From assembly GCA_010093995.1 (NCBI GenBank), contig ML992506.1, forward strand, positions 1,167,109 through 1,231,108: DNA of 64,000 nt. Reading direction: 5' to 3'. Positions 1-37,266 of this stretch are shown piece after piece. The notes under the pieces are model-generated. The model did no database searches. It saw nothing but the letters and a program-made list of their open reading frames with translations, and had not been told where the DNA came from. Position 1 is the first letter of the stretch, and every line of letters starts with the position of its first letter. A program made the translations under genes and the position numbers. Origin of the DNA: Elsinoe ampelina. Its lineage: Eukaryota.

Positions 1-3000
1 GATTTGGCGAGCTCCAGTTGGACGGAAGCTGCTTCGAGATATGCGGATTGTGCTTGGAAGTACTTCCAGAGAAGGTCGGCAGCATCGAGGGAGTCGTTCA
101 TCCGCCGACGGAGATAAGCAACAACAAAGGGAGACGAAAGCTCCAGCAGTCGGTCGGCCTGATCATTCGCCAAATACTGATCGAAGAGGACGGTCTGGAA
201 CACCTCATCTGTTGACTCGTTGATAACGCTGTATGCTTCTTCCCGCCGAGTCATTAGTAACTGTGACGGTCCGTCTTGAGGATGAGCATTCTCGTATGTG
301 GCGGTATCAACAGCATTGATGACATGGAAGATGAAATCGTAGACTGCTCGTCGCCTATCGAAAGCCTCTTTCCGAGCATCATCTGGAGGCGAGTTCTCCC
401 GCAACCAATTCAGAGCTCGATTAGCTCGATCCGACTCTTGTGCGACATTTAGACAAAGATGAATGGCGCCTGCATAGAATTGTGAACCAGTGTATTGTTG
501 CACGGCCCATTGTAGATGCTCCATGGACAGAGCCCCTGCCACTTTCTGGAATAGCCGAAGAGACTCGTTCAGCCAGGCTCGACCTTGCTCCGAATTCGCG
601 CCAGCCTCGGAAGCACGCTTGACCAGTTCCTGAGCTTTGAAGATGATGACATCGTCAGCGCTACAGAAGCTGCCGCATCGCCTTCGCAGAGCATCAGCAA
701 CCGTATCGACATTGGCGCCACTTGCTATGTTGCGATTGACAATAGCTTTTACGAGTTCCTTGGCCAGATCCCGAGCTTCAATAGATGAGAAGAGCTGCTC
801 AAATGTGAGTTGCTTGAGCTTGCCTCTCGATTGCTCGGGCAATGACATGACAATCTCGTCGACCCTTTCGTCGAAGAGGACAAGCACAAAAGCAATACCC
901 TCGATGATGCTGGAGACGAGTTGCACCATGGAATTCATTGCCCGGTGCTCAGCCTGCAGGGTGACCTCTTCCTGCTTGGTCGAGACTCGGCCTAGAGCTT
1001 CAGGTCCAGCGAGACCTTCGATCGACGTCCGATTCTTCTCCAGGAACTCTTGCAACGCATTCAATGACCTCTGAATGCTCTGTAGCTTCGTCAATGGGAA
1101 TGTTGGGATAACTTGCAAACCTCCAGTGGGTGATGCAGTCTCCATACAGACCGGAGCCTTCCAGATTGAGCGTACGATTCGAGACAAGTATAGCGCAATA
1201 CCCTCATGGCGCGGCGATGTCCGGACATTATCGATAGCCGGTACAGTATTGTCCAGCACAGAGTTCTCGTTGAAAGTCGGCCGACCGCCATGTTGGATGA
1301 ACATCTCTCGTGCAAAATCAATGACTTCTGGCTCCGTGATTTGTGCAATCCGTTCGTCATTGGTCACGTCCGAACCCTGCCCGCAAGCTACAGCAAGAGC
1401 AGATGCGGCGGACTCCGATCGTCCATAGAGTCGAATGAACTTCTTCATTTCACCTTCGCGGCCGTCATTGTCGCCACCGTACCGTACTGCTGCGGCCAGA
1501 ATGTCTACAAGCCTCCTCCGCCGAATAGTGTGCACTCCACTGCTGCTTAATATGGCGATCTCTGTGGCTGAAGCATCGAACTGCACGGCAAGCTCATTGG
1601 CAAATCCTAGTGGTGCTTTCGCGGCCCCAAAGGGAGGTGTCGCTCTGCCAAAGTCCTGCACTGGCATGCCGAGCTGAATGTACTGCGCGGTCTCCGGGTA
1701 TTTGGTCGGTTGTGACGGGTCCTTGGGCATTTTGATTTGTCCGGAATCTGGCGCACACAAGAAAAGTCGTTGCTGCTGCGTGTCTGGTGGATATCTCGCT
1801 ACCAGAAGGGAGAAACCAGGTGGGTACCTAGTTCCCATAGTCGTTGGCGTCAGCACGCGCGTGTTCAGATCGACTGCAGCGTTGTTCGCTTGATAGCCTC
1901 CGAGAGAGCCTTGTTGCTGCGCTTGGCCTTCTGAAGAACCAGCTGGATCCTTTGGTGGAAATTTGACATGGTGGACCTGCATGCTCGACGGCGCGCTGGA
2001 ATTGTTCGAAGGAAAATAGGAACCAGATGTAGCGCTCAGGAAAATGCGACAGCCGGACGACGTAACGAGTTGCAGACTCAAGCGAGAGCTCTCGGTTGCC
2101 GGGATCGGGCTGAGGGAAACGACTTCTGTGCTGGGTACGAGAAGATCTGTTCGCGGGATCATGTGGCCAATGTTGCTTAGTAGCGCTGTGAAAGGTCGAG
2201 TAAGTGCAAGCAAGACGCTGCCATCGTTTCTGATGTGATAGACGCGGATTGTGGACTTTGATGACAGGGTGTAGAGGAGATCACGAGTGTCGTCCACAGC
2301 CAGCTGTTTGATGTATTCGGTCTCTGTTCTGCCACCAAATATGCTCAGAGCTCCAGTAAGATCATAGCCCTGTTTGCTGTGATTAATCTTGTCGCATCGG
2401 CTTTTGAACCACCTCTCCTCTTGTGAATATGTCAGTTCCCACACGTCCTCATTCGCCCTGCCAGTGAAGAATATTCTCCCGCTCTTCTGCGAAGCCGTGA
2501 TCTGAGTACAGCTGATGCCCTTTGCTGGTACTGCCATTCGAGTAGAGTATAGATCGATGCTCTTGCCGCCGGCTGGATTCGCTGTTGTCGCAACTCCAAT
2601 GAGGGTGATCTCGCTCGTTGACGCTACCACCAGCAGATGGGTGATGGCCGCTACGAAGACTCCAGGACGTGGCTTGATCAGAGCGACTCCAGTAATCACA
2701 GAAGTGCTGTCCTCATATCCGATAAGCTCCGGGTTGGGATGGGTGTAATCCCAAAGGTAGAGCGAGCTGTCGATGGTGATGTAGGCATGGTTGATCTCGG
2801 CGAACAAGCCCAGAGCAGTCGCGACTTGAGATTGATTGGCTTGCTCGAAGATCTGCTCCGGTATGTCATAGTTCTTCACCCGCTGAAATGGGGCCCATGC
2901 AGAGTTGTCCAGCAGATCGTATTCAGCAGAGTATCCTTGCCCTACGTAGCTGTCCAACTCTGGATACCGACTCTCGCTGGCCAGTGCATCGTTTATCGTC

Positions 3001-3245
3001 CTCGCTCCTCTCGCTACTGGCGACAGATCCTGTGGTGCTTGCGCTCCCGATACTTGCTGTTGTGATTGTGAGGCAGTGTTGACCAGCGCTCCTGAGGACG
3101 GTTTCCTTTGAAGCGCGAGCGCGGATGAGGAGTTGGACCGGAAGATGGACGGCTGAGCTATGCGCTGTGATTGTGCTGGTGTCGAGATGTATCCTCCAGG
3201 AAGCTTTCTTTGAGGTGTCGCCGTCTGGGTGCTTGTCAAGGACAT
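1..3245 (-). CDS. NUP170: Nucleoporin Nup157/Nup170 (Nup155 family); 3' end lies beyond the window
   Basis: Manual minus-strand translation from ATG 3245 gives MSLTSTQTATPQRKLPGGYISTPA...ARTINDALASESRYPELDSYVGQGYSAEYD...WAPFQRVK...LGLFAEINHAYITIDSSLYLWDYTHPNPELIGYE, the characteristic fungal Nup170 N-terminal beta-propeller. The frame appears to run off the window edge, which would explain its absence from the ORF track. Confidence 0.92.
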   Translation of the reverse strand, partial: MSLTSTQTATPQRKLPGGYISTPAQSQRIAQPSIFRSNSSSALALQRKPSSGALVNTASQSQQQVSGAQAPQDLSPVARGARTINDALASESRYPELDSYVGQGYSAEYDLLDNSAWAPFQRVKNYDIPEQIFEQANQSQVATALGLFAEINHAYITIDSSLYLWDYTHPNPELIGYEDSTSVITGVALIKPRPGVFVAAITHLLVVASTSEITLIGVATTANPAGGKSIDLYSTRMAVPAKGISCTQITASQKSGRIFFTGRANEDVWELTYSQEERWFKSRCDKINHSKQGYDLTGALSIFGGRTETEYIKQLAVDDTRDLLYTLSSKSTIRVYHIRNDGSVLLALTRPFTALLSNIGHMIPRTDLLVPSTEVVSLSPIPATESSRLSLQLVTSSGCRIFLSATSGSYFPSNNSSAPSSMQVHHVKFPPKDPAGSSEGQAQQQGSLGGYQANNAAVDLNTRVLTPTTMGTRYPPGFSLLVARYPPDTQQQRLFLCAPDSGQIKMPKDPSQPTKYPETAQYIQLGMPVQDFGRATPPFGAAKAPLGFANELAVQFDASATEIAILSSSGVHTIRRRRLVDILAAAVRYGGDNDGREGEMKKFIRLYGRSESAASALAVACGQGSDVTNDERIAQITEPEVIDFAREMFIQHGGRPTFNENSVLDNTVPAIDNVRTSPRHEGIALYLSRIVRSIWKAPVCMETASPTGGLQVIPTFPLTKLQSIQRSLNALQEFLEKNRTSIEGLAGPEALGRVSTKQEEVTLQAEHRAMNSMVQLVSSIIEGIAFVLVLFDERVDEIVMSLPEQSRGKLKQLTFEQLFSSIEARDLAKELVKAIVNRNIASGANVDTVADALRRRCGSFCSADDVIIFKAQELVKRASEAGANSEQGRAWLNESLRLFQKVAGALSMEHLQWAVQQYTGSQFYAGAIHLCLNVAQESDRANRALNWLRENSPPDDARKEAFDRRRAVYDFIFHVINAVDTATYENAHPQDGPSQLLMTRREEAYSVINESTDEVFQTVLFDQYLANDQADRLLELSSPFVVAYLRRRMNDSLDAADLLWKYFQAQSAYLEAASVQLELAK

Positions 3246-3615
3246 GCTGGCGAGCTCCGCGTCGAGATGAGGTCGAAGGAAAGCGTCAGACACTGAGAGT
3301 AGCGGCTGTATAGCTTCTCATGAACTCGCATACATTGTGAAAGAGAGTTTCTGAGTGACTCCGACGGCAATTGACCCTCACTCGGCAGAATCGATCGCGA
3401 CTGTTGTGAGTTCTGAGATCTGAGAAATAATCGCAAACACACCTCGAAAGAGCTTCACGCGGAGCCGCCGCCAGCGCTCGGGCCACATCAAAAACGCGAC
3501 TCCTTGTCTACCTTACCTTTGTCTGCTACCTCATTCACTGCTCTGATCGAATTCGACATTCTTCCTTTCACCTGTTCTAGGAGACCTTATCACTTGGAGT
3601 CTGGATTTTGTAGAA

Positions 3616-4200
3616 ATGTCGAGGCTACCACCGGCCATGGCGACCAGATTCTCGATCGGGAGCTGCATCAAGTCGAAATGTCTTCCGCTCCGGCCACTCC
3701 AAATTCGATATTCTAGCAGTGATGCGCCTGCTCCGCCGCTTCTGTTGAAATTAAGAAACGACCTCAAAACAGCAATGCGAGCCAAGGATACCAACCGTCT
3801 CAATGTGGTCAGAGGCATACTCAACGAGGTCACAAACTCAAGCAAGACATCATCGCCGATCCAGACAGACATGCAACTTCTCTCATTACTACGGAAACGT
3901 GCAGCGGCATCAGAAACGGCAAGGAAGGAATTCAAGGATGCTGGTCGATCCGATCTGATTGAGAAGGAAGACGCCCAGCTCCATGTTCTGCAGGAGTATG
4001 CAGGTGGCGTGGAAACGTGGAACGACGAACAGATCAAGGAGGCTGTATCGACTGTCATCCAGGACATGAAATCGTCGAGTGAGAAGAAGATCGTCATGGG
4101 GGACGTACTGAAGAGGCTTTTCGCACCTGGTGGAGACCTTGATGGGAAGCCAGTCGAAAAAGCAAAGGTCAGTGTAGCTGTAAAGCAGTTGTTGAGCTAA
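3616..4200 (+). CDS. AIM41: Mitochondrial GatB/YqeY-domain protein (altered inheritance of mitochondria 41)
   Basis: A basic presequence-like N-terminus is followed by LLLKLRNDLKTAMRAKDTNRLNVVRGIL...EFKDAGRSDLIEKEDAQLHVLQEY, a YqeY-like signature. Confidence 0.88.
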   Translation: MSRLPPAMATRFSIGSCIKSKCLPLRPLQIRYSSSDAPAPPLLLKLRNDLKTAMRAKDTNRLNVVRGILNEVTNSSKTSSPIQTDMQLLSLLRKRAAASETARKEFKDAGRSDLIEKEDAQLHVLQEYAGGVETWNDEQIKEAVSTVIQDMKSSSEKKIVMGDVLKRLFAPGGDLDGKPVEKAKVSVAVKQLLS

Positions 4201-4761
4201 ATGCTGCTCTGCCACCCTCCTCTATCTCTTTTGCCCCATAGAAGATGCAAGAGGCACATGAGTCAGACCACACCATGTAGTAATAGTCGCTGGAGGCATG
4301 TCGTAGCGCACGAGGTTACCAAAACTCGCGCCTGCACCCTGGATCATCTCCGATCATGCTCAGGGGTAGTCTCCCAACCACTTGTATGATATGTACAGTA
4401 TAGCAAATCTCCACAATACAAACTCAGGCGACCGGACAACAAAGCGATAATTGCGCGTTGGCATAGACCGAAGCTCTGCTCCACAACTCGATGCGATTGA
4501 GTTAGGTGAAATCTGCAAGGAGAAAGCTAGAGAGCTCACTGAAAAGTCAACATTGTCGTCCCTCAAGCTGCACGAAGCTGCATAATGGGCTGGAGAACTT
4601 GCTCAAATGGAACAAATATGGTATGGATGAAAATAAATGGCTCTCAACCCACCGTCCACCTACGATTCGAGATAAAGTATAAAGCAAGCCGACTTTGCTA
4701 CCATCCTTTACTTGATCGCTTTCAACACCTTCGTTTCCTCGTTTGACAGTCGTCGATCAAG

Positions 4762-27519: not shown

Positions 27520-29045
27520 ATGGCAGCGACAGAGACTCGAGTGTGGAGGAAAAGTGATCTCTGACCTCCTACAATCGACGATGCTCGTGGCTGATCTGGA
27601 CAGACGGCGACGGACCGCTCAAGTCATGCAGCCTTTCCATCGTCGACTTGCTTGGACCTTGGACTCACGGGGAATGGCTCCGAGTTGCGTACTTGAGTAT
27701 CATACCTATCGTGTTGATAGCTTCTGACGTGAAGTAGACAGTGTTCGGTCACCCACAACCCGCCGTTTGATGAGATGCGTGAGCTTGAGCGGCGACTAGC
27801 ACTATCACAGTCGTTCTGGACAAGAGGGAGTGGCCATTATCGTATCAGCGGCTACTTTGGGGCGGACAGTCCTCCATCAAACATCAAAGGCACTTTTACC
27901 TACACTTCCGAAGCCCACTTTTTGTGGAAGCGAAGCATGCTATCAAGCAGCCTCCAGTCGCCCGGCATCGAGTGGATCTCAATGGGCGTTTTCGTGCACT
28001 GGGATTCGGATGGGCACACCTCGATTTTGCTGGAGTGCGAGGAGGTAGAAGCCACCAACTACTTGATCAAGGAGCTCTCCAACCGATTGGCCAAAGATAG
28101 CTGCCAGGCAGACCCATACGCCTCCCAAGCTCTCATACTCGAGCTCATGGTAGGCTTCTATGCGACGAATGTCGACGTCTGGCTAGGGTTTGTACGCTCT
28201 TTCGAGGCTCGACGACAGTACGGACTTGACGTCAGTGGCGAGCAGACGTACTCGATCGATGATCTGCCCAGGCACCTCAATCATTGTACCGAGTGTCTAG
28301 AGGTCACTGTTGGCGTGGTAGAGAGCATGATTGAAGAGCACACAGCTCTCCTTGCCGACTGTAACGACCTCGAGCAGCTAGATCCGGTTGTCCATCGGAG
28401 GACATCTCAGTCACTGAGGAAGTGCAGATCCCTGTTCCGCTCGCTTGTATTGCAAGCGAGATCTCTCGAATCTAGGATGCGGCATGAGGCTGAGTTGGTA
28501 TGTTCCTGCGATACTGGTAACCACTTCACAAGCTGATCCGGCACCAGGATCGCACATTCATAGCTAGGCAGGACAGTCGAACAGCAGCCAACATTGCTGC
28601 TCTCGCTCGAGCGGACAGTTCGTCAACAAAGACGATCAGCGTGCTGGGGTTGATCTTCTTGCCTACGACACTGGTCTGCGTAGGTCGATTCACATTGCAA
28701 GACTATCTGCATTCTACTTGTTGCTGACTATAGGTGTAGTCCATCTTCAGCACAACCTTCTTCACCCTGCAGCCTGCGGCACAACTCGGTGATATCTCTA
28801 CTAGACCCCCCTTCGGGTCTACTACCAGAAACGGTGTCACACTTTACTGGATCGTATCTGACCAGTTCTGGCTTCTCTGGCTGGTGTCCATTCCCTTGAC
28901 TTTGCTCACCGTACTCTGCTGGGCGCTCTTCACAGGTGTCAAGCTTCCGTCAGTCAGTAGGCTCGCAAACACGGCGACACGAAGACCTGGTAGGACGATC
29001 TCTTTCAATACGTGGGAGAAGGGTACCCCCAAGAACGCCAAATGA
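27520..29045 (+). CDS. Fungal CorA-like two-TM-domain protein, paralog A (four predicted introns)
   Basis: Spliced model MAATETRVWRKN|GDGPL...GPWTHGEWLRVA|QCSVTH...LSQSFW...ADSSSTKTISVLGLIFLPTTLVC|SIFSTTFF...VSDQFWLLWLVSIPLTLLT. The C-terminal TM pair is typical of CorA-like fungal proteins. Confidence 0.78.
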
Positions 29046-29776
29046 GAACGACCGGTGGACGTAGCTCACTTGCTGGGCGGATCTAGCAGAAAATGGCAGA
29101 GTACTGGTAGCTGGAACGAATCATTGACCATTCCACAGCCAGGGAGCTGTACCTTTGACAATGTACCAGCATGGTCAGAAAGGCAATCCTTCAAGTACTT
29201 GATGCCCCTACCACAACTTCCTGCCCGACTCACTCTACACACGAGCTGGCCCGCGTGCCGGGAGGTGAGTAGTGACAGTACTCAGAATGGGAGTTCCACA
29301 TCCGGATGGTACGTGCGGGGCACGACGTAGCACATCGGGTAACCGCGTAGTGTTCAACTTGAAGATACCATGGTAGCGGTGACTTGAGATCCGATGTGGA
29401 CACAAGATGAGAGGCAACAGCATGGCCATGAGGGGATGTGATGACGAGGCTACGTACGTAAATCATGCTACTGGACATAAATTCTATAGCAGCTACATGG
29501 TCAGCCATTTATGTGACTAGCATTTATATGGTTCAAACACGCGCATAGCTGAGCAATTGTGGCAAACTCAACCGAGCTGCGGGCGTCGTCCATAGATGAC
29601 GCAGAATTGATGTCTACACTCTGCTTCTCTACTGCTTTTCTACACCACTACTCAAATAACAACCACGACTGATGTGCTCGGTCGTGTACAAGTCAGAGCA
29701 CTGATCGACCTTGAGCCAATCAAAATGATTTGCGTGTTGGCATGTCAGCTGCGGCTGCAGCCAGGACGGTCGTGCA

Positions 29777-29822
29777 TACGGTAGCTTCCGCCAAAACCGT
29801 CAAAACCATCAAAACACTCAAA
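29777..29822 (+). repeat. Left terminal inverted repeat with 9-bp NNTCAAAAC sub-repeats
   Basis: TACGGTAGCTTCCGCCAAAACCGTCAAAACCATCAAAACACTCAAA. Confidence 0.92.
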
Positions 29823-30331
29823 TCCCCAAATCATCAAAGTTTGGAGGCCTCTAACTCCCTTAATTCTGTCAATATTGATATACAATTAACAGTAAATTGA
29901 TCAGATTAATCTATTCTATCATCCTCCAACTTCAAGCATTTTTTTTGAGCTGATTTTGGTGCTGGCGTAATTAGTGCGTGTTATAGCGGCTAGGCGGCGA
30001 GGTGCTTGGCACTCCGCCAGCACTCCTACCTCCAACACCTTGATATTACCTACATCATGCGACTGCGGCGGCGAATGCACTGCGAATACTGTCAGAATAG
30101 ATCTCTATTGTCCTCTATTTAAGCTGCTAAGAGTAAGGCTTAATCCGGTGGGTGTTTATTGTTCCTTGCCGCTTTTAGGTCTTTATATTGTTACTATTGT
30201 CACTATTGTCACTATTTAAACTAGCAACAATGATGGCAGCTTTAATATATATAAGCTTACAGTCACTATGTAGTTTAATTAGAACTCTGCTATACTATTA
30301 CGACCCTGTCAAATTTAATTAAATATTTACT

Positions 30332-31047
30332 ATAGCTAACACTACTAAAGTAACCTCTACTAAGTATGTATCACAGCATGTTCGCAGCTGGTTCGCTACT
30401 GACTTCGCCTTCTAGAAGATACAATCCACAAGCGCTAGACGCTACGATTAACAACGATCCCTATGCCTCTAATACCTCTAAGGAAACAACTAGTAACTCT
30501 AAGGCTATATATGTCTTTATAGCTCCTTAGGCTAGTGTTCGCCACTGATTCGCATAGCTACCCTATTACATACTCGTACCGCCGCCCTAAGACTGAGAAT
30601 CTAGCCAGATTTTGGTTTATCTCCGAGTTAAACTAGTTTAAGCTCGTTAACACCTGCGAGACTAGCGGCAACAAGTGTAGTAAGGACTTTATAACGCTCC
30701 GTATATACGACGCCATCGGCCGCATTATAGAGACAGACGAAGGCGGCATTAGCGAACGCGCCTGCGAACAGTATATAAAGGCAAACGAGCTGTGTGCTTG
30801 CTTCCTTAATAAGCCGTCTAAGTCGTGTATATACTACTGCCGCTACTATCGCTAGAGGTGCGCCCCTTAGCTTACAAAGGAGGAGCTAGAGGATTAGAAG
30901 CCGGTGACCGCGGGCCGCATTAAGGAGCTTAAGTAGAGAGTAGAGGCGCTAGAGAATAATACGCTCGCTACTAAGGCTAAGCTATAGTAGCTAAGGGATA
31001 GAATTACGGAACTTACGAATAGGCCTATAAACTAGTAGCGAACATAA
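30332..31047 (+). pseudogene. RIP-degraded transposon cargo gene: Zn2Cys6-like cluster followed by a coiled coil; introns 30364-30415 and 30509-30557
   Basis: The start reads actATAgct (from accATGgct). Intron 1 is gtatgt...ctgac...tag. Exon 3 reads C-E-Q-[TAT from TGT]-IKANEL-C-ACFLNKPSKS-C-IY-[TAC from TGC]-CRYYR*R-C, then RIKELK*RVEALENNTLATKAKL**LRDRITEL. All stops are TAA/TAG. Confidence 0.68.
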
Positions 31048-31167
31048 TACCTATATATTCTCCTAGAGTTTATAGACTATAATTTTACCCCCTTTACATT
31101 GCCTCCTCTAGTCGATATTAAATCGTGACTGTACGTACTACGAATTGCTTAGCGAACTACTAGCGAT

Positions 31168-31377
31168 TCTACTCGCACTGTCTACCTTGCACCGTCTAAC
31201 TCGTACACCGCTATCTAACTCGTTACCGCCGTCTAGCTCGCACTACTATCTAACTTGTCACCGCTGTCTAACTCGTATACTGCCGTCTAGCTCGCACTAC
31301 GAACTAGTCTACTACCTATCTAGCTCGCACTACGAACTGTTCTACTACTATCTAACTCGCACTATCTAATTCGTGCA
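31168..31377. repeat. Degenerate ~17-19-bp tandem repeat (core TCTARCTCGYAC) inside the transposon
   Basis: About ten copies such as gtctaactcgtacacc, atctaactcgttacc, gtctagctcgcactac and atctaactcgcactat. Confidence 0.75.
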
Positions 31378-31619
31378 CCCCTAACTAACACCTTTGCCCC
31401 TAACCCTACCCCTACTGCTACCCCTACCCCTACCCTCCCTCGCATCTCCCCTCTCTACCCTACTACCCTAATAGTAAGGCGGTGGGATGTAGTGGAGGGT
31501 ACTTGTACCCTCTACTACGTAGGGGGCTCTTGCCTCCCCTTCTCTCCTCTCTCCCCTCCGTAAAGAGGTTTTTTACTAGAAGAGAATTATCAGCAAGAAG
31601 AAGTATATATATAGGGTGT

Positions 31620-33250
31620 CAAACCACGCCTTACCCTTTTAGGCAAGCCTATAACCCTAGCATAGACTTGTAAGGCCTTTTAGCCTTATAGCCGGTGTAA
31701 CTACGGAGAGTGTAGTTAGTTAAATTAACTATAGTCTTTTAACGCTTACTAGCCTTAACCGAGTAATCGCTTCGTGTTCGCTTATGTATTCGAGGTTAAT
31801 ATGATTGCTTAGGCTCGTTAACTTACTCGTGCTGTTCTTAATGCTCCTTAGAGGTTGCCTTAGTCTTAATCCTTTACTCTGATTCTATAGACGACTTAGC
31901 TTTAAAGAGAGAGCTATATAGTAAGTTCATTAGCCTACCGAGGGTCTCCTTACTTAGCACTGCACGCTGTGGCTGCCGAGGGGTGTTAAAAGGTAGTAGA
32001 GGCTCGGCGGTACTATCTAAGTTAAAGAGATCGTCCTATACAGTCGATGACTTAACACTGCCGACTATGCTAGTCGGTATACTTGCAAGAAGGCTCCTAG
32101 CACGAAGCTAGAAGCGTAGAGTCTCTAGTAGTAGAGCTGGCACAGCGGCAGCAGGTGCGGCTAGTGAAGACTCTATAAGGTCGATAGTCTCCTTGCCGTC
32201 GACGAGCTAGCTAGGCTACTTCTCCTTCCCCTTTGCCCTAGCTACTAAAACTTGCTATGTGCGCTCCTCGATTAAGGCCTTAATCTTATCGTTAACCGAC
32301 AAGAGTTCCGGCTTAACATTAACGTCGTTAGAAGTATTCAAAAACGAGAAGTCGGTGTCCTCTATAAAAAGATTTTTATCCTACGAATTAGCCTTAATAT
32401 TCGCTTCGGTGTTTGTAGCTAGGGATATCGTCGTGTTTACATCGGCGTTCGTAGCGTGACTTAGAGATCCTAACCCTCTCCACGGATACTCTATATGCTC
32501 CTACTGTTCCTTCGACTTATCGTCCTTAGCTTATTTAATCACGACGTAAAGGAGATGCTCAATAGTAGTACGCTTCGATTTCGGCTTACGCGGGAGACTA
32601 ACTAACATCTTCTAGATGCTCGGCTACTAGAAGACGTTGTCGGCAATAGGTATAGCCTTATCGTCCTCTATTAGTACGAAATAGCGCTTCGTAAAGCGTA
32701 GTATTACTATTTCTAGATCGCGGATAGTAGGATTAGGGCAGTGACTATAGACTAAATTCAACAAGAAGGACGTTCTTTAGTAGTTACTCTCTAGTAATTC
32801 GGCATTAAACTCCGACGGCGTGATCTAGTCCGTCTACTTAGTTAGCTCTAGCTAAGAGACGATCTTCTTATAAGGCATACTATGCTTAAGCTTATACTCT
32901 ATCTCGATTGTTAGGCCGTAGAGGTGAAGTCTAATCCTTTGCTCTTTATTAGCCTTTAGTCCTTTAGGAGTTTCTTCGTTAGGCGAATCGTTTAGTAAGT
33001 CCTTATACGAACGCTAAGAGACTAGTAAAGATCCTACATGTGGCAATTGTGCTACTACGCCTTTAGCCTTTTTGCCCTTCTAGTATCTAGCACGCCTTGC
33101 TATATTGGCTTTAGTCGAGAGACTACTATATGCGGTTAGCGCCGGCGCTATAGATCGCTTTATATTCGCCGCTATAATCGCGAGTTAGTCTATGTTAGCC
33201 TAAGATAGCGCGCGAGTTAGACTACTAGATAGTGCGCGAGATAGACTAGC
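31620..33250 (-). pseudogene. RIP-degraded second ORF of the transposon, unknown function (boundaries approximate)
   Basis: One continuous minus-strand frame follows a ctaac...tag intron acceptor at ~33251 and is interrupted only by TAA/TAG. Segments include ANIARRARY*KGKKAKG, RIRLHLYGLTIEIEYKL and an acidic/Ser-rich region, ending near KRPYKSMLGL. Confidence 0.6.
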
Positions 33251-33560
33251 CTATACAGGTTAGCACTAAGGCTCTTCTAGCGTTAATGCTGTGCTTGCTT
33301 GTTAATAGTTTAGATTAGTCTTATAGCAAATAGAACACTCAGCGAGGTGTCTATATTTAACTACGTAATTAGAGCCTTTATATTTGTAAAAAGGTGCCTA
33401 AGAAGGTAGCGGCATCTCGCTAGTAGTAACAAACAAACAATATAGTAGTAATAAGCAAAAACCGTAGAGAAAATAGAGTAGGAAAGCCCTAGTATATTAG
33501 AGAGGGGATTTAATATACATGAGTTAGATGTTCGTAGTGTGTTTACTCGGCGTTTGCGAT

Positions 33561-35140
33561 TTACTCGGCAACTTCTGCACGCAATTAATAGCCTTAAGGA
33601 TTATCTAGTTTTTGGCACTCCGATAGTAGAGAATAGCGCTACTATTGATCGTGCTTGATTAGTGCATTACGAAGCATGAAATAAGCTCTCTAGTGGAGTC
33701 TAACACCGTAAGCATTAGTTGCTCGACTATTACAAGGCTAGAGGCTAGCGGCGGAGAGGATTAAGGTATAGAGATTAAGGGTGTTAGAGGGTAGATATTA
33801 CTTATAATCTAGTACTTAATTAGCTACAAATATCTATTAGCACTTGCACCTTACCGAATTCGCTAGTGTACTAGTCTAAATCGTCGAATTAGTTAGGTAG
33901 TATAGCAACGGTATAGTCCTGTGCGCCGACTACCCCTAGATAATAATATAGGAGCCTCGGCACCCCTATAATTATATATAGTTGTCTCGGCTGCTTCCGG
34001 ATGCAGTGATAGTTCTATTAATACACGAATTGCTACACCTCTACGCGAAGGATAGGCGTGTATATAGCTATAAGAGCGACTTAGTAAGCAATAAGATTGC
34101 GCTTCTAGCGCTTTAACTTCTTTAGCTTAGTAAACTATCTTCGCTAGCGGTTCGTAGTGCTCTTTGCAAGCTAGGCCTACTATAATTCAATACGCTAATT
34201 CTGCTTACTCGTGCCGAATAAGAAGGCTTTATTCACCTCTAAAGAGAGACTACTTAGCTAACGCCGAGCGTCGAGATGCACTTATAAGACTATCGCAGTC
34301 TCGCCCCCTCTATCCGTGTAGATCTCGAGGGAGATCCGGCTATATAAGGCAGCAATAGTAGTATACTACTTCATAATTGATATAGCCTTCCTTGCCGAGA
34401 AGCCTATATAGGCCTAAACGATGTAGCGTGAAAATTCGTTAATTGCGGCGTAAATCTCGATGCTATACTCCTTAAGCTTGCAATAGGCGTCCATTAACTA
34501 GGTATAGTTTAGCCCTAGCACGTCTTACACGCCGTGACTAGTAGGCCGCCAGTTACTACAAATCTAGAACACTAAGGGATTAATTGCAATTACGGCGCGG
34601 TAAAGGCGCCGACTAGGTTAGAGTTAGTGAACCGACTGGCGAACGTATTACAAATATGTATTACCTCCTAACAATCCTATGCTTCTGCCTTATATAGGTG
34701 TAAAGGTAGCTAAGGCCCTAATCCTCGATATTACTAGCGTTATATTTGCTTTATAGTAGCTGCCGTATTCGCTCGTACTTAACCTTGTCCTCTTCTCGAT
34801 CAATCCGATAGATGAGGCCTAACTCTTTATATAGGCGCTTTAGCATCCCTAACGATATATCGAAGCCTTACTCTTTTAGTACCTCTAGCGTCTCTTGCTA
34901 GCTAATACGTAGCTGGAATAGCTCCTTAATGCTGCGGTAGAGAGCCTCGGAGTCGACTAGTGCCTTAGGGTGGGTGGAGAGCTGCCAGCCTTGCAAGAGG
35001 CGCTAGAGCGTTCTAAGCGACAGGGTGTAACTACGCCTTAATAGCCTCTAGAGTACTTTAGGCTAATCACAGCGCTCGTGCAGCAACTAGTACTCGATAA
35101 GAGGCCTATCTACCTCGATTGTAGCGGATTGTGAAGCCAT
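33561..35140 (-). pseudogene. RIP-inactivated DDE transposase (integrase core plus N-terminal HTH/Clr5-like region), ~493 aa; introns 34613-34664 and 33809-33854
   Basis: ATG at 35140. De-RIP translation gives LSLRTLQRLLQGW, VPGPNYTWSMDAYCKL..YGIEIYAAIDEFSRYIVWAY.G, TDRGGET, FGTSKQNQRIESWWAQL and WN.H.IRKQP....GVP.LLYYYP. No frameshift was found. Confidence 0.9.
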
Positions 35141-35385
35141 ATCGAGTGGTGTGGTATGTTAGGGGGTAATAGGAAGGAAGGTACAGAAAACCAGCACACC
35201 TGGCTTTTATACCGGCGCCAAGCCACAAAAAACTAAAGGTATACAATAAGAGAATAATACTTACATTAAACGATAGAGCGTCATAAGAGCTGTCGATTGC
35301 AATAAGAATCATTGCAATAAGTGGTATAGGTGGTGCGCGGGGAGGTGGTGTAATAGCAAATGCTGGGTTTAAGCGTTTTGATGGT

Positions 35386-35431
35386 TTTGAGCGTTTTGAC
35401 TGTTTTGACTGTTTTGGCGGAAGCTACCGTA
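35386..35431 (-). repeat. Right terminal inverted repeat; 9-bp sub-repeats continue inward to ~35367
   Basis: Reverse complement reads TACGGTAGCTTCCGCCAAAACAGTCAAAACAGTCAAAACGCTCAAA(ACCATCAAAACGCTTAAAC). Confidence 0.92.
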
Positions 35432-35616
35432 TGCATGACGGTGGCCAGCTGAGACGGCGCCTCGACCTCGCTCGACTCGTGTGGTGAAGGACTGCTTTCA
35501 CCGTTGATACGTGAGCCACAGATAGGATCTCAGTTGCAAAGGCGCCAGAACGAAGTGTTTGATATCAGGACTGACCGCACTTGGACTTCGCCGAGTCTCA
35601 GTGAGACAGCAAGGTC

Positions 35617-37266
35617 ATGTCAGCACACACAAACCCGACATTTCCTCCAGGACCACGGTCATCACAACATCAATTAACTTTCTATGTATACAGCAGAGGT
35701 ACATATGCCCCATAGATCTGATTGCAATGCTGCTGATCACTATATAGGCTCTCACAATCGTGGCACAGGTCACACCTTGCGGCTTGAGGACTCGTGGGCC
35801 CCGTGGCAGCCAGGTGAGACATTCAGGTTGATGTAAGCTACACGGACTACTTGTGACATCCTTGGAAACTGATTCCCCAACGGTACATGCATGCGCACCC
35901 CAAATGATCGCGATCGACATCAACTCGACCTCAAGCTCGGCCTGAATCAATCGTTCTGGACATTCCTCTACAAGCACGCCAATGGCTTTTTCCGAGCTCG
36001 TGAGCACCACACCGAGTCTGGTGATCTTGAGAGCTACAGAATTACCACCCGTTCACTCTTTAAGCGTTTCCCCTCTCTCGAGAATGCGGATTATCGAGTG
36101 AATGACCCTACCCCTGCTGCGACCTGGACCTCTTTCGCGTCCTACACCAAATGGGAGCCTGCTGGGAGGGTTACCGTGCTGGTGAACGTCGAAAGGGCAC
36201 AGTTCCTGGAGCTACTAGGTATTCCTCGCCTCCTGGACGAGTCTTTCGCGCGGCGCTGCACCGCTGATCCCTTCGCTTTCCACGCCGCCATGATCGAGCA
36301 GATGCTTCATATCTGCAACTTGGCGATATGGTCCGTGAGAAAATCTATGCGATTGTTCCAGGACGAGGTCTTGACTGAGTCTACCGACAAACCCACCAAG
36401 AGCGAAGGGCCCGTCTCAGATATCCGTCTCCTCGAAGTCCCGGAGCATTTCGTCCACTGCAGCGAGCTGGCCGCCTCAGCTGGCGAGATTGTCGAGGCCA
36501 TGGTCGAGGAGCACGCCACGTTCGTCGAGGATAACACCAATATTCCTGCACTTTCGAAGAGGGTGGCCAGGAATGTAAGCAAAGACCTCAAAGCTCACAG
36601 AGCACTGTTCAAGTGTCTGGGCTATCGAGCGGCCAGTCACCAATCTGTACTGAGTCACAATATCAGCATGGTAGGGGTTCTGACTTCAAATGCAAGCATG
36701 ATACTCACACTATCACAGGCTATCGTCAAGATGCAACAACGAGACAGCCAGGTCCAACGGAAAGACAGCGAAACAGCCACGAAGATCGCCAAACTCGCAC
36801 AGGCTGACAGCTCTTCCACAAAGACTATCAGTGTGCTCGGTCTGCTGTTTCTACCAAGCACCTTCGTCTGCGTACGTGTTCCTCTCATGCTCACCCTTTC
36901 ACTTGACCCCTTATTCCCTTTCAGACGTTTACTAGGGGAACCTGCTGACACAACCAGTCCCTCTTCAGCACAACCTTCTTCTCCCTGCAACCCGCCGCAG
37001 ATCTTCAGGACCAGCCAGGCACTGCTCCGTCCAGGACAGGCGCCGATCGTCTACCGACGTACTGGCTTTTGTCGGATCGATTCTGGATATTCTGGGCTGT
37101 GTCGATACCTTTGACTTTGTTTACGCTGTGCTTTTGGTTTGTGTATACGAGAGGACATGTCAAGAAGTTTGCCAGGTGGGTCTTTGGCATACGAGAGGTG
37201 AAAGGTGGGAGGGAAGAGGGTGAGGCGGGCAAGGAGGCAGAGAAGGGGGACGGGGCGGTTGCATAG
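35617..37266 (+). CDS. Fungal CorA-like two-TM-domain protein, paralog B (intron-2 acceptor reads CGG; may be truncated or pseudogenised)
   Basis: Same exon structure as paralog A: WAPWQPGETFRL, LNQSFW, ADPFAFHAAMIE, ADSSSTKTISVLGLLFLPSTFVC|SLFSTTFF...LSDRFWIFWAVSIPLTLFT. Confidence 0.72.

Follow-up and report, generated by a model that had tools for sequence, protein, structure and literature searches.

Transposons of the IS3EU/GingerRoot superfamily, named IS3EU since 2013 (PMC10045372), are defined by a DDE transposase without an HHCC finger, by TA..TA termini and by usually 6-bp target-site duplications (PMC10045372, PMC6839031). Fungal IS3EU families carry inverted repeats of more than 30 bp ending in TAYGG..CCRTA (PMC12730594); the Puccinia consensus sequences start with TATGGAGG and a Tuber indicum family starts with TACGGCAAGGCAAGCGTACC (PMC12730594 supplement). 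In the rust and Tuber families, the transposase is accompanied by TET/JBP and alpha-kinase genes (PMC12730594; Kojima 2025). The superfamily is thinly described, mostly through Repbase entries, and ascomycete examples are few, namely Styx, one Tuber family and mentions at the RepeatMasker level. Styx, or ZtREP9, of Zymoseptoria is 7.9 kb long and has four genes, two of them DUF3716 by Pfam and one an orphan (PMC8232023); it has 36-43-bp inverted repeats, 6-bp duplications at 33 of 36 copies, and copies in the sister species that are fully mutated by repeat-induced point mutation (RIP) (PMC8232023; PMC10853768). Its protein REP9-1 (193 aa, 6 Cys) switched on the other Styx genes upon overexpression (PMC8232023). 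Here, we analysed a 64-kb stretch of Elsinoe ampelina contig ML992506.1 (hereafter the window) and conclude that a block within it is very probably one RIP-inactivated copy of a multi-copy IS3EU/GingerRoot DNA transposon, lying between host genes of an ascomycete.

The RIP-mutated block comprises 5,655 bp (29777-35431) and ends with TACGG..CCGTA in inverted orientation. The 21-nt tip TACGGTAGCTTCCGCCAAAAC occurs at exactly two sites in the window, that is at 29777 on the plus strand and at 35411-35431 on the minus strand (expected count 0 in 100 shuffles). Comparison of the two block ends from TACGG inwards revealed agreement at 21 of 21, 42 of 46 and 44 of 49 bases. A preliminary description of this DNA, made from the sequence alone, had delimited the same block with 46-bp terminal inverted repeats, the left one at 29777..29822 (+) starting with TACGG and the right one at 35386..35431 (-) ending with CCGTA, and had described these ends as built from 9-bp sub-repeats; both statements stand, since the tip is confined to the two ends and period-9 arrays are present at both. 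According to Tandem Repeats Finder, these arrays cover 29788-29815 (3.1 copies) and 35375-35416 (4.7 copies). The left sub-repeats are of the CCGTCAAAA type and run on to about 29838, and the right ones are of the GTTTTGACT type and cover 35364-35416.

In the block, the TpA/ApT ratio is 1.84 as compared to 0.52-0.56 in the flanks, and (CpA+TpG)/(ApC+GpT) is 0.63 as compared to 1.23-1.26, with a GC content of 0.41-0.44 in the block versus 0.51-0.60 outside. It is the only RIP island in the window and forms one continuous stretch, with a strong signal between about 30300 and 35100 and only a weak one in the outer 300-500 bp of both ends. We also noticed that 29777-30300 and 35100-35431 are almost devoid of the RIP signature despite the heavily mutated interior, and that the 21-bp tips are mutually identical. 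Both dinucleotide indices and a transition-dominated divergence among copies (see below) mark the block as a RIP-mutated repeat. The view that RIP has destroyed every open reading frame (ORF) is confirmed by the indices of 1.84 and 0.63 and by in-frame stops in all three genes of the block.

Contigs of two public runs, both from one sample that is probably the source of the window, were aligned to 28300-36900 at a likeness of at least 80%. Summed contig depth, which is not a copy number, amounts to 1,446-4,409 in every bin of 29735-35474 as compared to 180-211 in the flanks. Thus, many diverged copies of the entire block are present, not of sub-blocks. Transitions account for 892 of the 942 variable sites in run X1 (332 C>T, 349 G>A, 110 T>C and 101 A>G), and run X2 displays a similar pattern; this transition-rich divergence between copies is the pattern of RIP. 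A joint skipping the element was not seen in the contigs of the two runs from this sample. The block had been introduced as a full-length autonomous element: it is indeed complete from end to end and belongs to a multi-copy family, but the copy in the window is not autonomous now. Nested unrelated fragments, the possibility that could have overturned the proposal, are extremely improbable, as contig depth is high across the whole block.

To identify the encoded proteins, the six frames of the block were read through with X at each stop and scanned against Pfam. One of the six read-through frames matched rva_4, an 'integrase core domain' (E = 2.4e-9; 37.6 bits at a cutoff of 26). A full HMMER search of the transposase core against 1.84 billion representative proteins retrieved 429 relatives at E<=1e-3, among them 144 with E<=1e-10 and 6 with E<=1e-30; the top-scoring relative has E = 9.8e-37 and is 40% identical. 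Of the homologues, 14 were scanned; rva_4 is present in each of them and a Clr5 helix-turn-helix domain additionally in four. When 150 fetched proteins were aligned to the window by tblastn, 160 segments were obtained at E<=1e-3, all inside 33651-34999, and looser thresholds revealed matches of the N-terminal and C-terminal parts in two other frames. From these matches in three frames, the DDE transposase pseudogene therefore extends on the minus strand from about 35140 to 33609 (33609..35140). It is composed of an N-terminal helix-turn-helix part (34652-35140), whose 163 codons align with the helix-turn-helix part of the homologues, a catalytic core (33832-34608) and a C-terminal part (33609-33815), and contains 34 in-frame stops and two frame changes.

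The alignment shows that the protein has retained the catalytic residues D (MDAYCKL), D (YTDRGGE) and E (NxRIE). RIP damage has changed GPN to GLN and turned several Trp codons into stops, so that the motif set GPN..W..D..KL / DxGxE / S..NQRIE..W, on which the preliminary description had relied, is recovered in the damaged form GLNYTxLMDAYCKL, DRGGE and SKQNxRIE. The AlphaFold model of an intact homologue, P0004, built with a 55-sequence alignment, reached a predicted local distance difference test (pLDDT) score of 90.5 and displays an RNase-H-like core, preceded by several helical bundles at the N-terminus and followed by a C-terminal part that is also helical. Its Foldseek neighbours are TnsB transposases of Tn7/CAST and retroviral integrases (E from 5e-5 upward), and a PDB sequence search with the transposase profile yielded only weak matches (E>=0.004). 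Our literature search returned no paper linking Clr5, transposase and integrase core, and none relevant for PF24764.

Placement in IS3EU relies in part on relatives from metagenomes. Scanning of metagenome contigs of the Joint Genome Institute (JGI) with the transposase alignment gave 567 matching stretches, of which 429 encode a relative; 80 loci were kept. One of them, L055:4555-11106, is a complete 6,552-bp element with the 6-bp duplication TCCCTG; a Tet_JBP-like gene lies upstream of its transposase, and an orphan ORF of 350 aa is convergent. L055 matches the window core at E = 7e-32, and its tips, TACGGCAAGGCAAGTGTACC, nearly coincide with the beginning of IS3EU-1_TuIn, the Tuber indicum family. 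Thus, the homologous protein of L055 ties the window transposase to Repbase-classified IS3EU. In the supplement alignment of PMC10045372, the Repbase IS3EU cores share W.[IV]D...KL / D.G.E / NQ[RK]IE..W with the window protein, and the Ginger2 rows differ from the window core motifs, as judged by eye in both cases. The transposase possesses the helix-turn-helix N-terminus of IS3EU and gave no Integrase_H2C2 match in the Pfam scan. The termini read TACGG..CCGTA with 42 of 46 bases agreeing, but the repeat goes 11-14 bp further out, so that these may not be the physical tips. The classification as an integrase-type, IS3EU-like transposon is supported by the rva_4 core, the conserved D/D/E residues and the L055 link, and the statement that TAY...RTA ends typify IS3EU is matched by the TAYGG..CCRTA ends on record for fungal families (PMC12730594). 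In a quick IQ-TREE of 69 transposase cores, that is 68 loci and the window copy (the duplicate L061 and loci with a best segment of <170 residues being left out), the window transposase groups with L001, L016 and L005/L006 (SH-aLRT 98), apart from the DUF3716-carrying clades. The contigs of these nearest tree relatives are too short to show a third gene.

The relatives also provide a framework for the rest of the element. Outside the transposase, the loci contain 216 ORFs of at least 130 aa, of which 135 were scanned with Pfam, without the duplicate L061 and some short or overlapping ORFs. DUF3716 was detected in 3 of the 135, namely in L008 (E = 3e-14), L009 (1e-12; L009:3585-4106(-)) and L042 (8e-7; L042:4565-5116(-)), each time on the strand opposite the transposase and 2-3 kb downstream. 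With a local profile of these three ORFs, L036, L031, L048 and L025 were matched as well, though less strongly, and each time again on the opposite strand. The link between DUF3716 and IS3EU, apparent from L008, L009, L042 and the weaker loci, therefore seems to recur beyond the Zymoseptoria element Styx. L008:36-5050 constitutes a complete element about 5.0 kb in length. Its tip is TACGG, its inverted repeats of 54 nt match at 93%, and short repeats are found sub-terminally; it comprises the transposase, middle ORFs and a convergent DUF3716 gene. In addition, the ORF after the transposase in relatives starts with the motif M..W..C...H...CxxC..NPx[YFP]. This second-protein motif has 16 matches in 15 of the 80 loci, 15 of the 16 at such an ORF start; it lies downstream of the transposase and on the same strand in 12 of the 51 loci with at least 700 nt downstream, and on the other strand in L029 and L070. 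The second proteins (e.g. L003:4414-5688, L005:1613-3124, L013:2294-3754 and L070:4386-5720(-), found by the motif) are mutually related (phmmer E 1e-5 to 1e-16 between loci) and fast-evolving, with a long Pro/Ser-rich middle, a basic tail and no Pfam family.

The coding character of the block was assessed by a chi-square test of GC content by codon position on block segments. It was significant in two transposase pieces (p = 1.5e-5 and 2.4e-5), in ORF2 at 32132-33031 (-) (p = 1.2e-5) and in the Cys-rich gene at 30595-31041 (p = 2.4e-4; purine at codon position 1 = 0.61), and not significant in five other segments, including the 5' and 3' thirds of ORF2. ORF2 and the Cys-rich stretches share the codon pattern of the transposase pieces, that is GC lowest at the second and highest at the third position and a purine-rich first position. 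ORF2 (31622..33415, -), recognized by partial codon periodicity and an N-terminal Cys motif, has its start Met near 33415-33413, is interrupted by 30 stops in 580 codons and encodes a basic tail close to the 3' end. When the second-protein motif was relaxed to allow P or L after N, it had a single match in the six frames of the window, at 33337 (-), i.e. at the start of ORF2. This match reads ..CSICYKTNLNY.. and follows the transposase on the same strand at a distance of about 270 nt; its departures from the relatives' motif (Tyr for His, Leu for Pro, a stop for Trp) are of the kind caused by RIP. Because the pattern was chosen after the window sequence had been seen, this match is suggestive and no formal test. 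Judged by motif and position, ORF2 is probably the IS3EU 'second protein'.

Convergent to these two genes lies a Cys-rich gene (30365..31041, +), identified by codon periodicity, whose 5' part (30365-30594) is uncertain and apparently in another frame. It has 9 stops in 149 codons and a six-Cys-type motif at about 30757-30860, in which two positions are now Tyr (..RACEQ[Y]IKANELCACFLNKPSKSCIY[Y]CRYYRxRC..), followed by a heptad-like Leu/Glu/Lys-rich tail. Between the convergent genes, a spacer (31195..31470) harbours tandem repeats (periods 54, 33, 14 and 6) as well as a low-complexity run rich in C. Some copies are internally deleted there, e.g. with a joint from 31188 to 31346. As a separate observation, the spacer contains a CCCCTA run, and its deletions differ among the other copies in the sample. 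The claim of three degenerate genes thus holds as far as three coding-like regions on the strands named are concerned, but the 'Zn-cluster' label given to the third one does not: Pfam, homology and profile searches provide no support for it, and by position the gene could equally be DUF3716.

Several observations weigh against the assignment of the block to a complete three-gene IS3EU element. The likeness to Repbase IS3EU proteins was judged by eye, not by a tree, and in our own tree the window transposase sits on a very long branch (2.16). The two runs do not constitute independent support, because they share a single sample, from which the window itself probably derives. Periodicity covers only about 900 of the 1,740 nt of ORF2, for which no Pfam match was obtained in the six-frame scan or with sub-pieces at E<=10, and no homologue in a word-based search with 8,000 candidates scored. 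Neither an N-terminus profile of 14 ORFs, nor phmmer with 14 second proteins, nor BLASTP with the second protein of the nearest relative detected ORF2. Likewise, the Cys-rich gene has no Pfam match at E<=10, whether the whole gene or the 50-aa motif is used, and is neither Zn_clus nor DUF3716 by this measure; word-based searches of 18 and 168 candidates, including shorter, similar-length and longer proteins, returned no homologue, the local DUF3716 profile of three ORFs did not match, and hhalign against the DUF3716 ORFs gave a probability of 0.23%. A clean 6-bp target duplication was not found at the canonical tips of the one copy examined. Finally, the repeat runs 11-14 bp past TACGG/CCGTA, unlike in 5 of 6 complete-looking metagenomic relatives, which start exactly at TAYGG. 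Matches of ORF2 and Cys-rich sub-pieces at E<=10 to ADAM17_MPD, Lipoprotein_17 and Glyco_hydro_2_C were dismissed as noise, and a single-sequence AlphaFold model of ORF2 (pLDDT 35) was unusable.

The position of the ends deserves closer consideration. The inverted repeat 29766-29825 versus 35383-35442 extends 11 bp past TACGG/CCGTA on each side, with 9 of 11 bases matching. Contigs of other copies share sequence out to 29763-29765 and 35444, and two contigs with differing outside sequence align up to 29765. The unique left flank contig stops at 29792 and the unique right flank contig begins at 35415; since they derive from a 31-mer graph, the 30-mers 29763-29792 and 35415-35444 must recur in the sample. 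Thus, as the repeat continues and contigs of other copies share sequence there, the true edges may lie 11-14 bp outside the tips, with a left extension at 29765..29776 (+), suggested by the repeat continuation and the contigs of other copies, and a right extension at 35432..35443 (-), suggested by the repeat continuation and the recurring 30-mer. On balance, and with a single copy in view, we favour the outer ends (29765/35443) over the TACGG/CCGTA tips. If the element starts at 29765, the 5-mer GCCAG at 29760..29764 and again at 35444..35448 becomes a candidate target-site duplication, although the outer flanks may alternatively be read as the 6-bp pair AGCCAG/GGCCAG, one transition apart. 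GACGGT (29765-29770 and 35437-35442) was rejected as a duplication, for it is present in other copies too.

Alternatively, TACGG/CCGTA could be the true ends, and the 11-14 bp outside could reflect a partly palindromic sequence that is preferred as target, with TGCA as a duplication of 4 bp, which we regard as unlikely, though not far-fetched. The Puccinia and Tuber IS3EU consensus sequences of Repbase begin at TAYGG, as does the inverted repeat in 5 of 6 metagenomic elements with a TAYGG/CCRTA pair; that of L008 also begins at TAYGG, with one mismatch. Moreover, TGCA adjoins both canonical tips, whose flanks are CGTGCA and TGCATG with only this palindrome in common. However, IS3EU duplications measure 6 bp and show no clear target consensus (PMC10045372, PMC8232023, PMC6839031), and the contig stops at 29792 and 35415 and the alignments up to 29765 would require near-identical flanks of 12-14 bp at other insertions; in addition, the 5-bp direct repeat GCCAG abuts the outer ends. 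A 6-bp duplication masked by RIP (CGTGCA and TGCATG from CGCGCG) was discarded, as it needs 5 changes in 12 bases, yet the adjoining 21-bp tips are identical. We further noted that the inverted repeat of L056:178-4341 goes at least 30 bp beyond its TAYGG/CCRTA pair, and this locus may be a second case in which TAYGG is not outermost.

As to the third gene, we consider the chances even that it is DUF3716-like. The window gene agrees with the DUF3716 gene of the relatives in position and orientation only, and RIP damage may hide a true DUF3716 match. It is distinctly less probable that the gene encodes a Zn2Cys6 (Gal4-type) transcription factor that dimerises through a coiled-coil tail, whether it belongs to the element or was captured as part of a host gene, and no more probable that it encodes something else. 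If the two Tyr are former Cys, the motif becomes C-x2-C-x6-C-x10-C-x2-C-x7-C, which fits the Zn2Cys6 pattern, and the Tyr codons TAT/TAC are explainable as RIP products of the Cys codons TGT/TGC. The heptad-like tail after the Cys motif would suit such a factor, as would the spacing of x7 between fifth and sixth Cys, unlike the x8 of four aligned DUF3716 ORFs of relatives. Against this speak the lack of a Zn_clus report at E<=10 for gene or 50-aa motif, the lack of a homologue among shorter, similar-length or longer proteins, and the fact that the relatives' gene at this place and in this orientation is DUF3716; Styx has DUF3716 genes as well (PMC8232023).

Two further explanations for the block as a whole can be dealt with briefly. 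Membership in another integrase-type group (Ginger1, Ginger2/TDD, Polinton or a fragment of a long terminal repeat (LTR) retrotransposon) is extremely improbable: these groups all have the RNase-H-like DDE fold and retroviral integrases are among the Foldseek neighbours of P0004, but no frame matched Pfam rve, Integrase_H2C2, reverse transcriptase or protease at E<=1, the N-terminus is a helix-turn-helix and not HHCC, the element has terminal inverted repeats and TA tips instead of LTRs or TG..CA ends, and the core motifs are unlike the Ginger2 rows of the supplement alignment. Just as remote is the possibility that degraded repeats of unrelated origin form a patchwork and by chance lie between two short repeats that resemble each other. 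In its favour, no homologue was detectable for two of the three 'genes', and the spacer in the centre consists of tandem repeats. Against it, the multi-copy depth is roughly even over 5.66 kb and falls to the single-copy level where the two inverted repeats lie, RIP affects one continuous stretch, and gene order and size agree with the complete relative L008.

The IS3EU/GingerRoot assignment suggests a life history for the element, which we outline on the basis of what was directly observed, i.e. inverted repeats, RIP signature, transposase family, multi-copy state and codon periodicity. A transposase of about 510-550 aa, with an N-terminal helix-turn-helix and an RNase-H-like DDE core, may have bound the 9-bp sub-repeats in the inverted repeats and excised the element at its tips, presumably by cut-and-paste chemistry; the element would then have reinserted elsewhere, leaving a short target duplication. 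Two accessory genes would have travelled along, namely ORF2 just downstream on the same strand, probably a fast-evolving second protein with a Cys/His motif, and at the far end, where relatives have DUF3716, the gene of a putative small convergent Cys-rich protein. RIP during sexual cycles would finally have hit all copies, turning every gene into a pseudogene. In the window, the element lies between genes; an empty site made in silico has no stop-free stretch of >73 codons across the junction. A neighbouring 773-aa ORF encodes 3-isopropylmalate dehydratase, and its nearest Atlas clusters are mostly from Ascomycota. For the host genome, the practical value is a better repeat annotation. Beyond that, the locus illustrates that even heavy RIP does not prevent the recovery of a complete element. 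Considered alongside its metagenomic relatives, it also suggests a recurrent arrangement in fungi, with a transposase, a second protein and a convergent DUF3716 gene, which gives context for two orphan protein families.

Multi-gene fungal IS3EU forms are already in print, and the window element is therefore a dead member of a known superfamily. Like described IS3EU/GingerRoot elements, it has a DDE core with W.[IV]D...KL, D.G.E and NQRIE..W and no HHCC finger, inverted repeats of more than 30 bp reading TAYGG..CCRTA (which may not be its physical tips), a length of several kb and probably a second protein beside the transposase. It differs from them in lacking a clean 6-bp duplication, in the repeat and multi-copy signal 11-14 bp past the TA tips, and in the destruction of all its genes by RIP. 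Nor does it carry an alpha-kinase or TET/JBP gene, in contrast to the rust and Tuber families (PMC12730594). The three-gene cargo architecture, which the preliminary description had ascribed to a poorly characterised ascomycete lineage, is not new but known in kind from Styx/REP9 (PMC8232023) and from L008, L009 and L042. By description, Styx is likewise an ascomycete IS3EU-related multi-gene element that combines a transposase with a gene without homologues and small Cys-containing genes; in contrast, the window element has 5.66 kb, three genes and no DUF3716 match, and the duplications of Styx are clear. L008, L009 and L042 share with it the transposase, the same-strand ORF(s) and the convergent small Cys-rich gene 2-3 kb downstream, L008 above all also the TACGG tip, the short sub-terminal repeats and a similar size, whereas their third gene is DUF3716 by Pfam and their transposases fall into other tree clades.

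That DUF3716 genes and a Cys-motif second protein repeatedly accompany IS3EU-type transposases far outside Zymoseptoria may not have been published yet; of the two papers on DUF3716 that our literature search returned, the REP9 paper was the only one to connect it with a transposon. Tentatively, and with somewhat less than even chances, the window element could belong to a widespread fungal clade of three-gene IS3EU elements, consisting of transposase, Cys-motif second protein and convergent DUF3716 gene, with ends moved 11-12 bp outwards from the canonical TAYGG tip. If so, DUF3716, a fungal domain of unknown function, would largely be a transposon-borne regulator, in line with the effect of REP9-1 overexpression (PMC8232023), and Styx would be only the one described case of such an element, contrary to the published view that nothing Styx-like exists outside Zymoseptoria.

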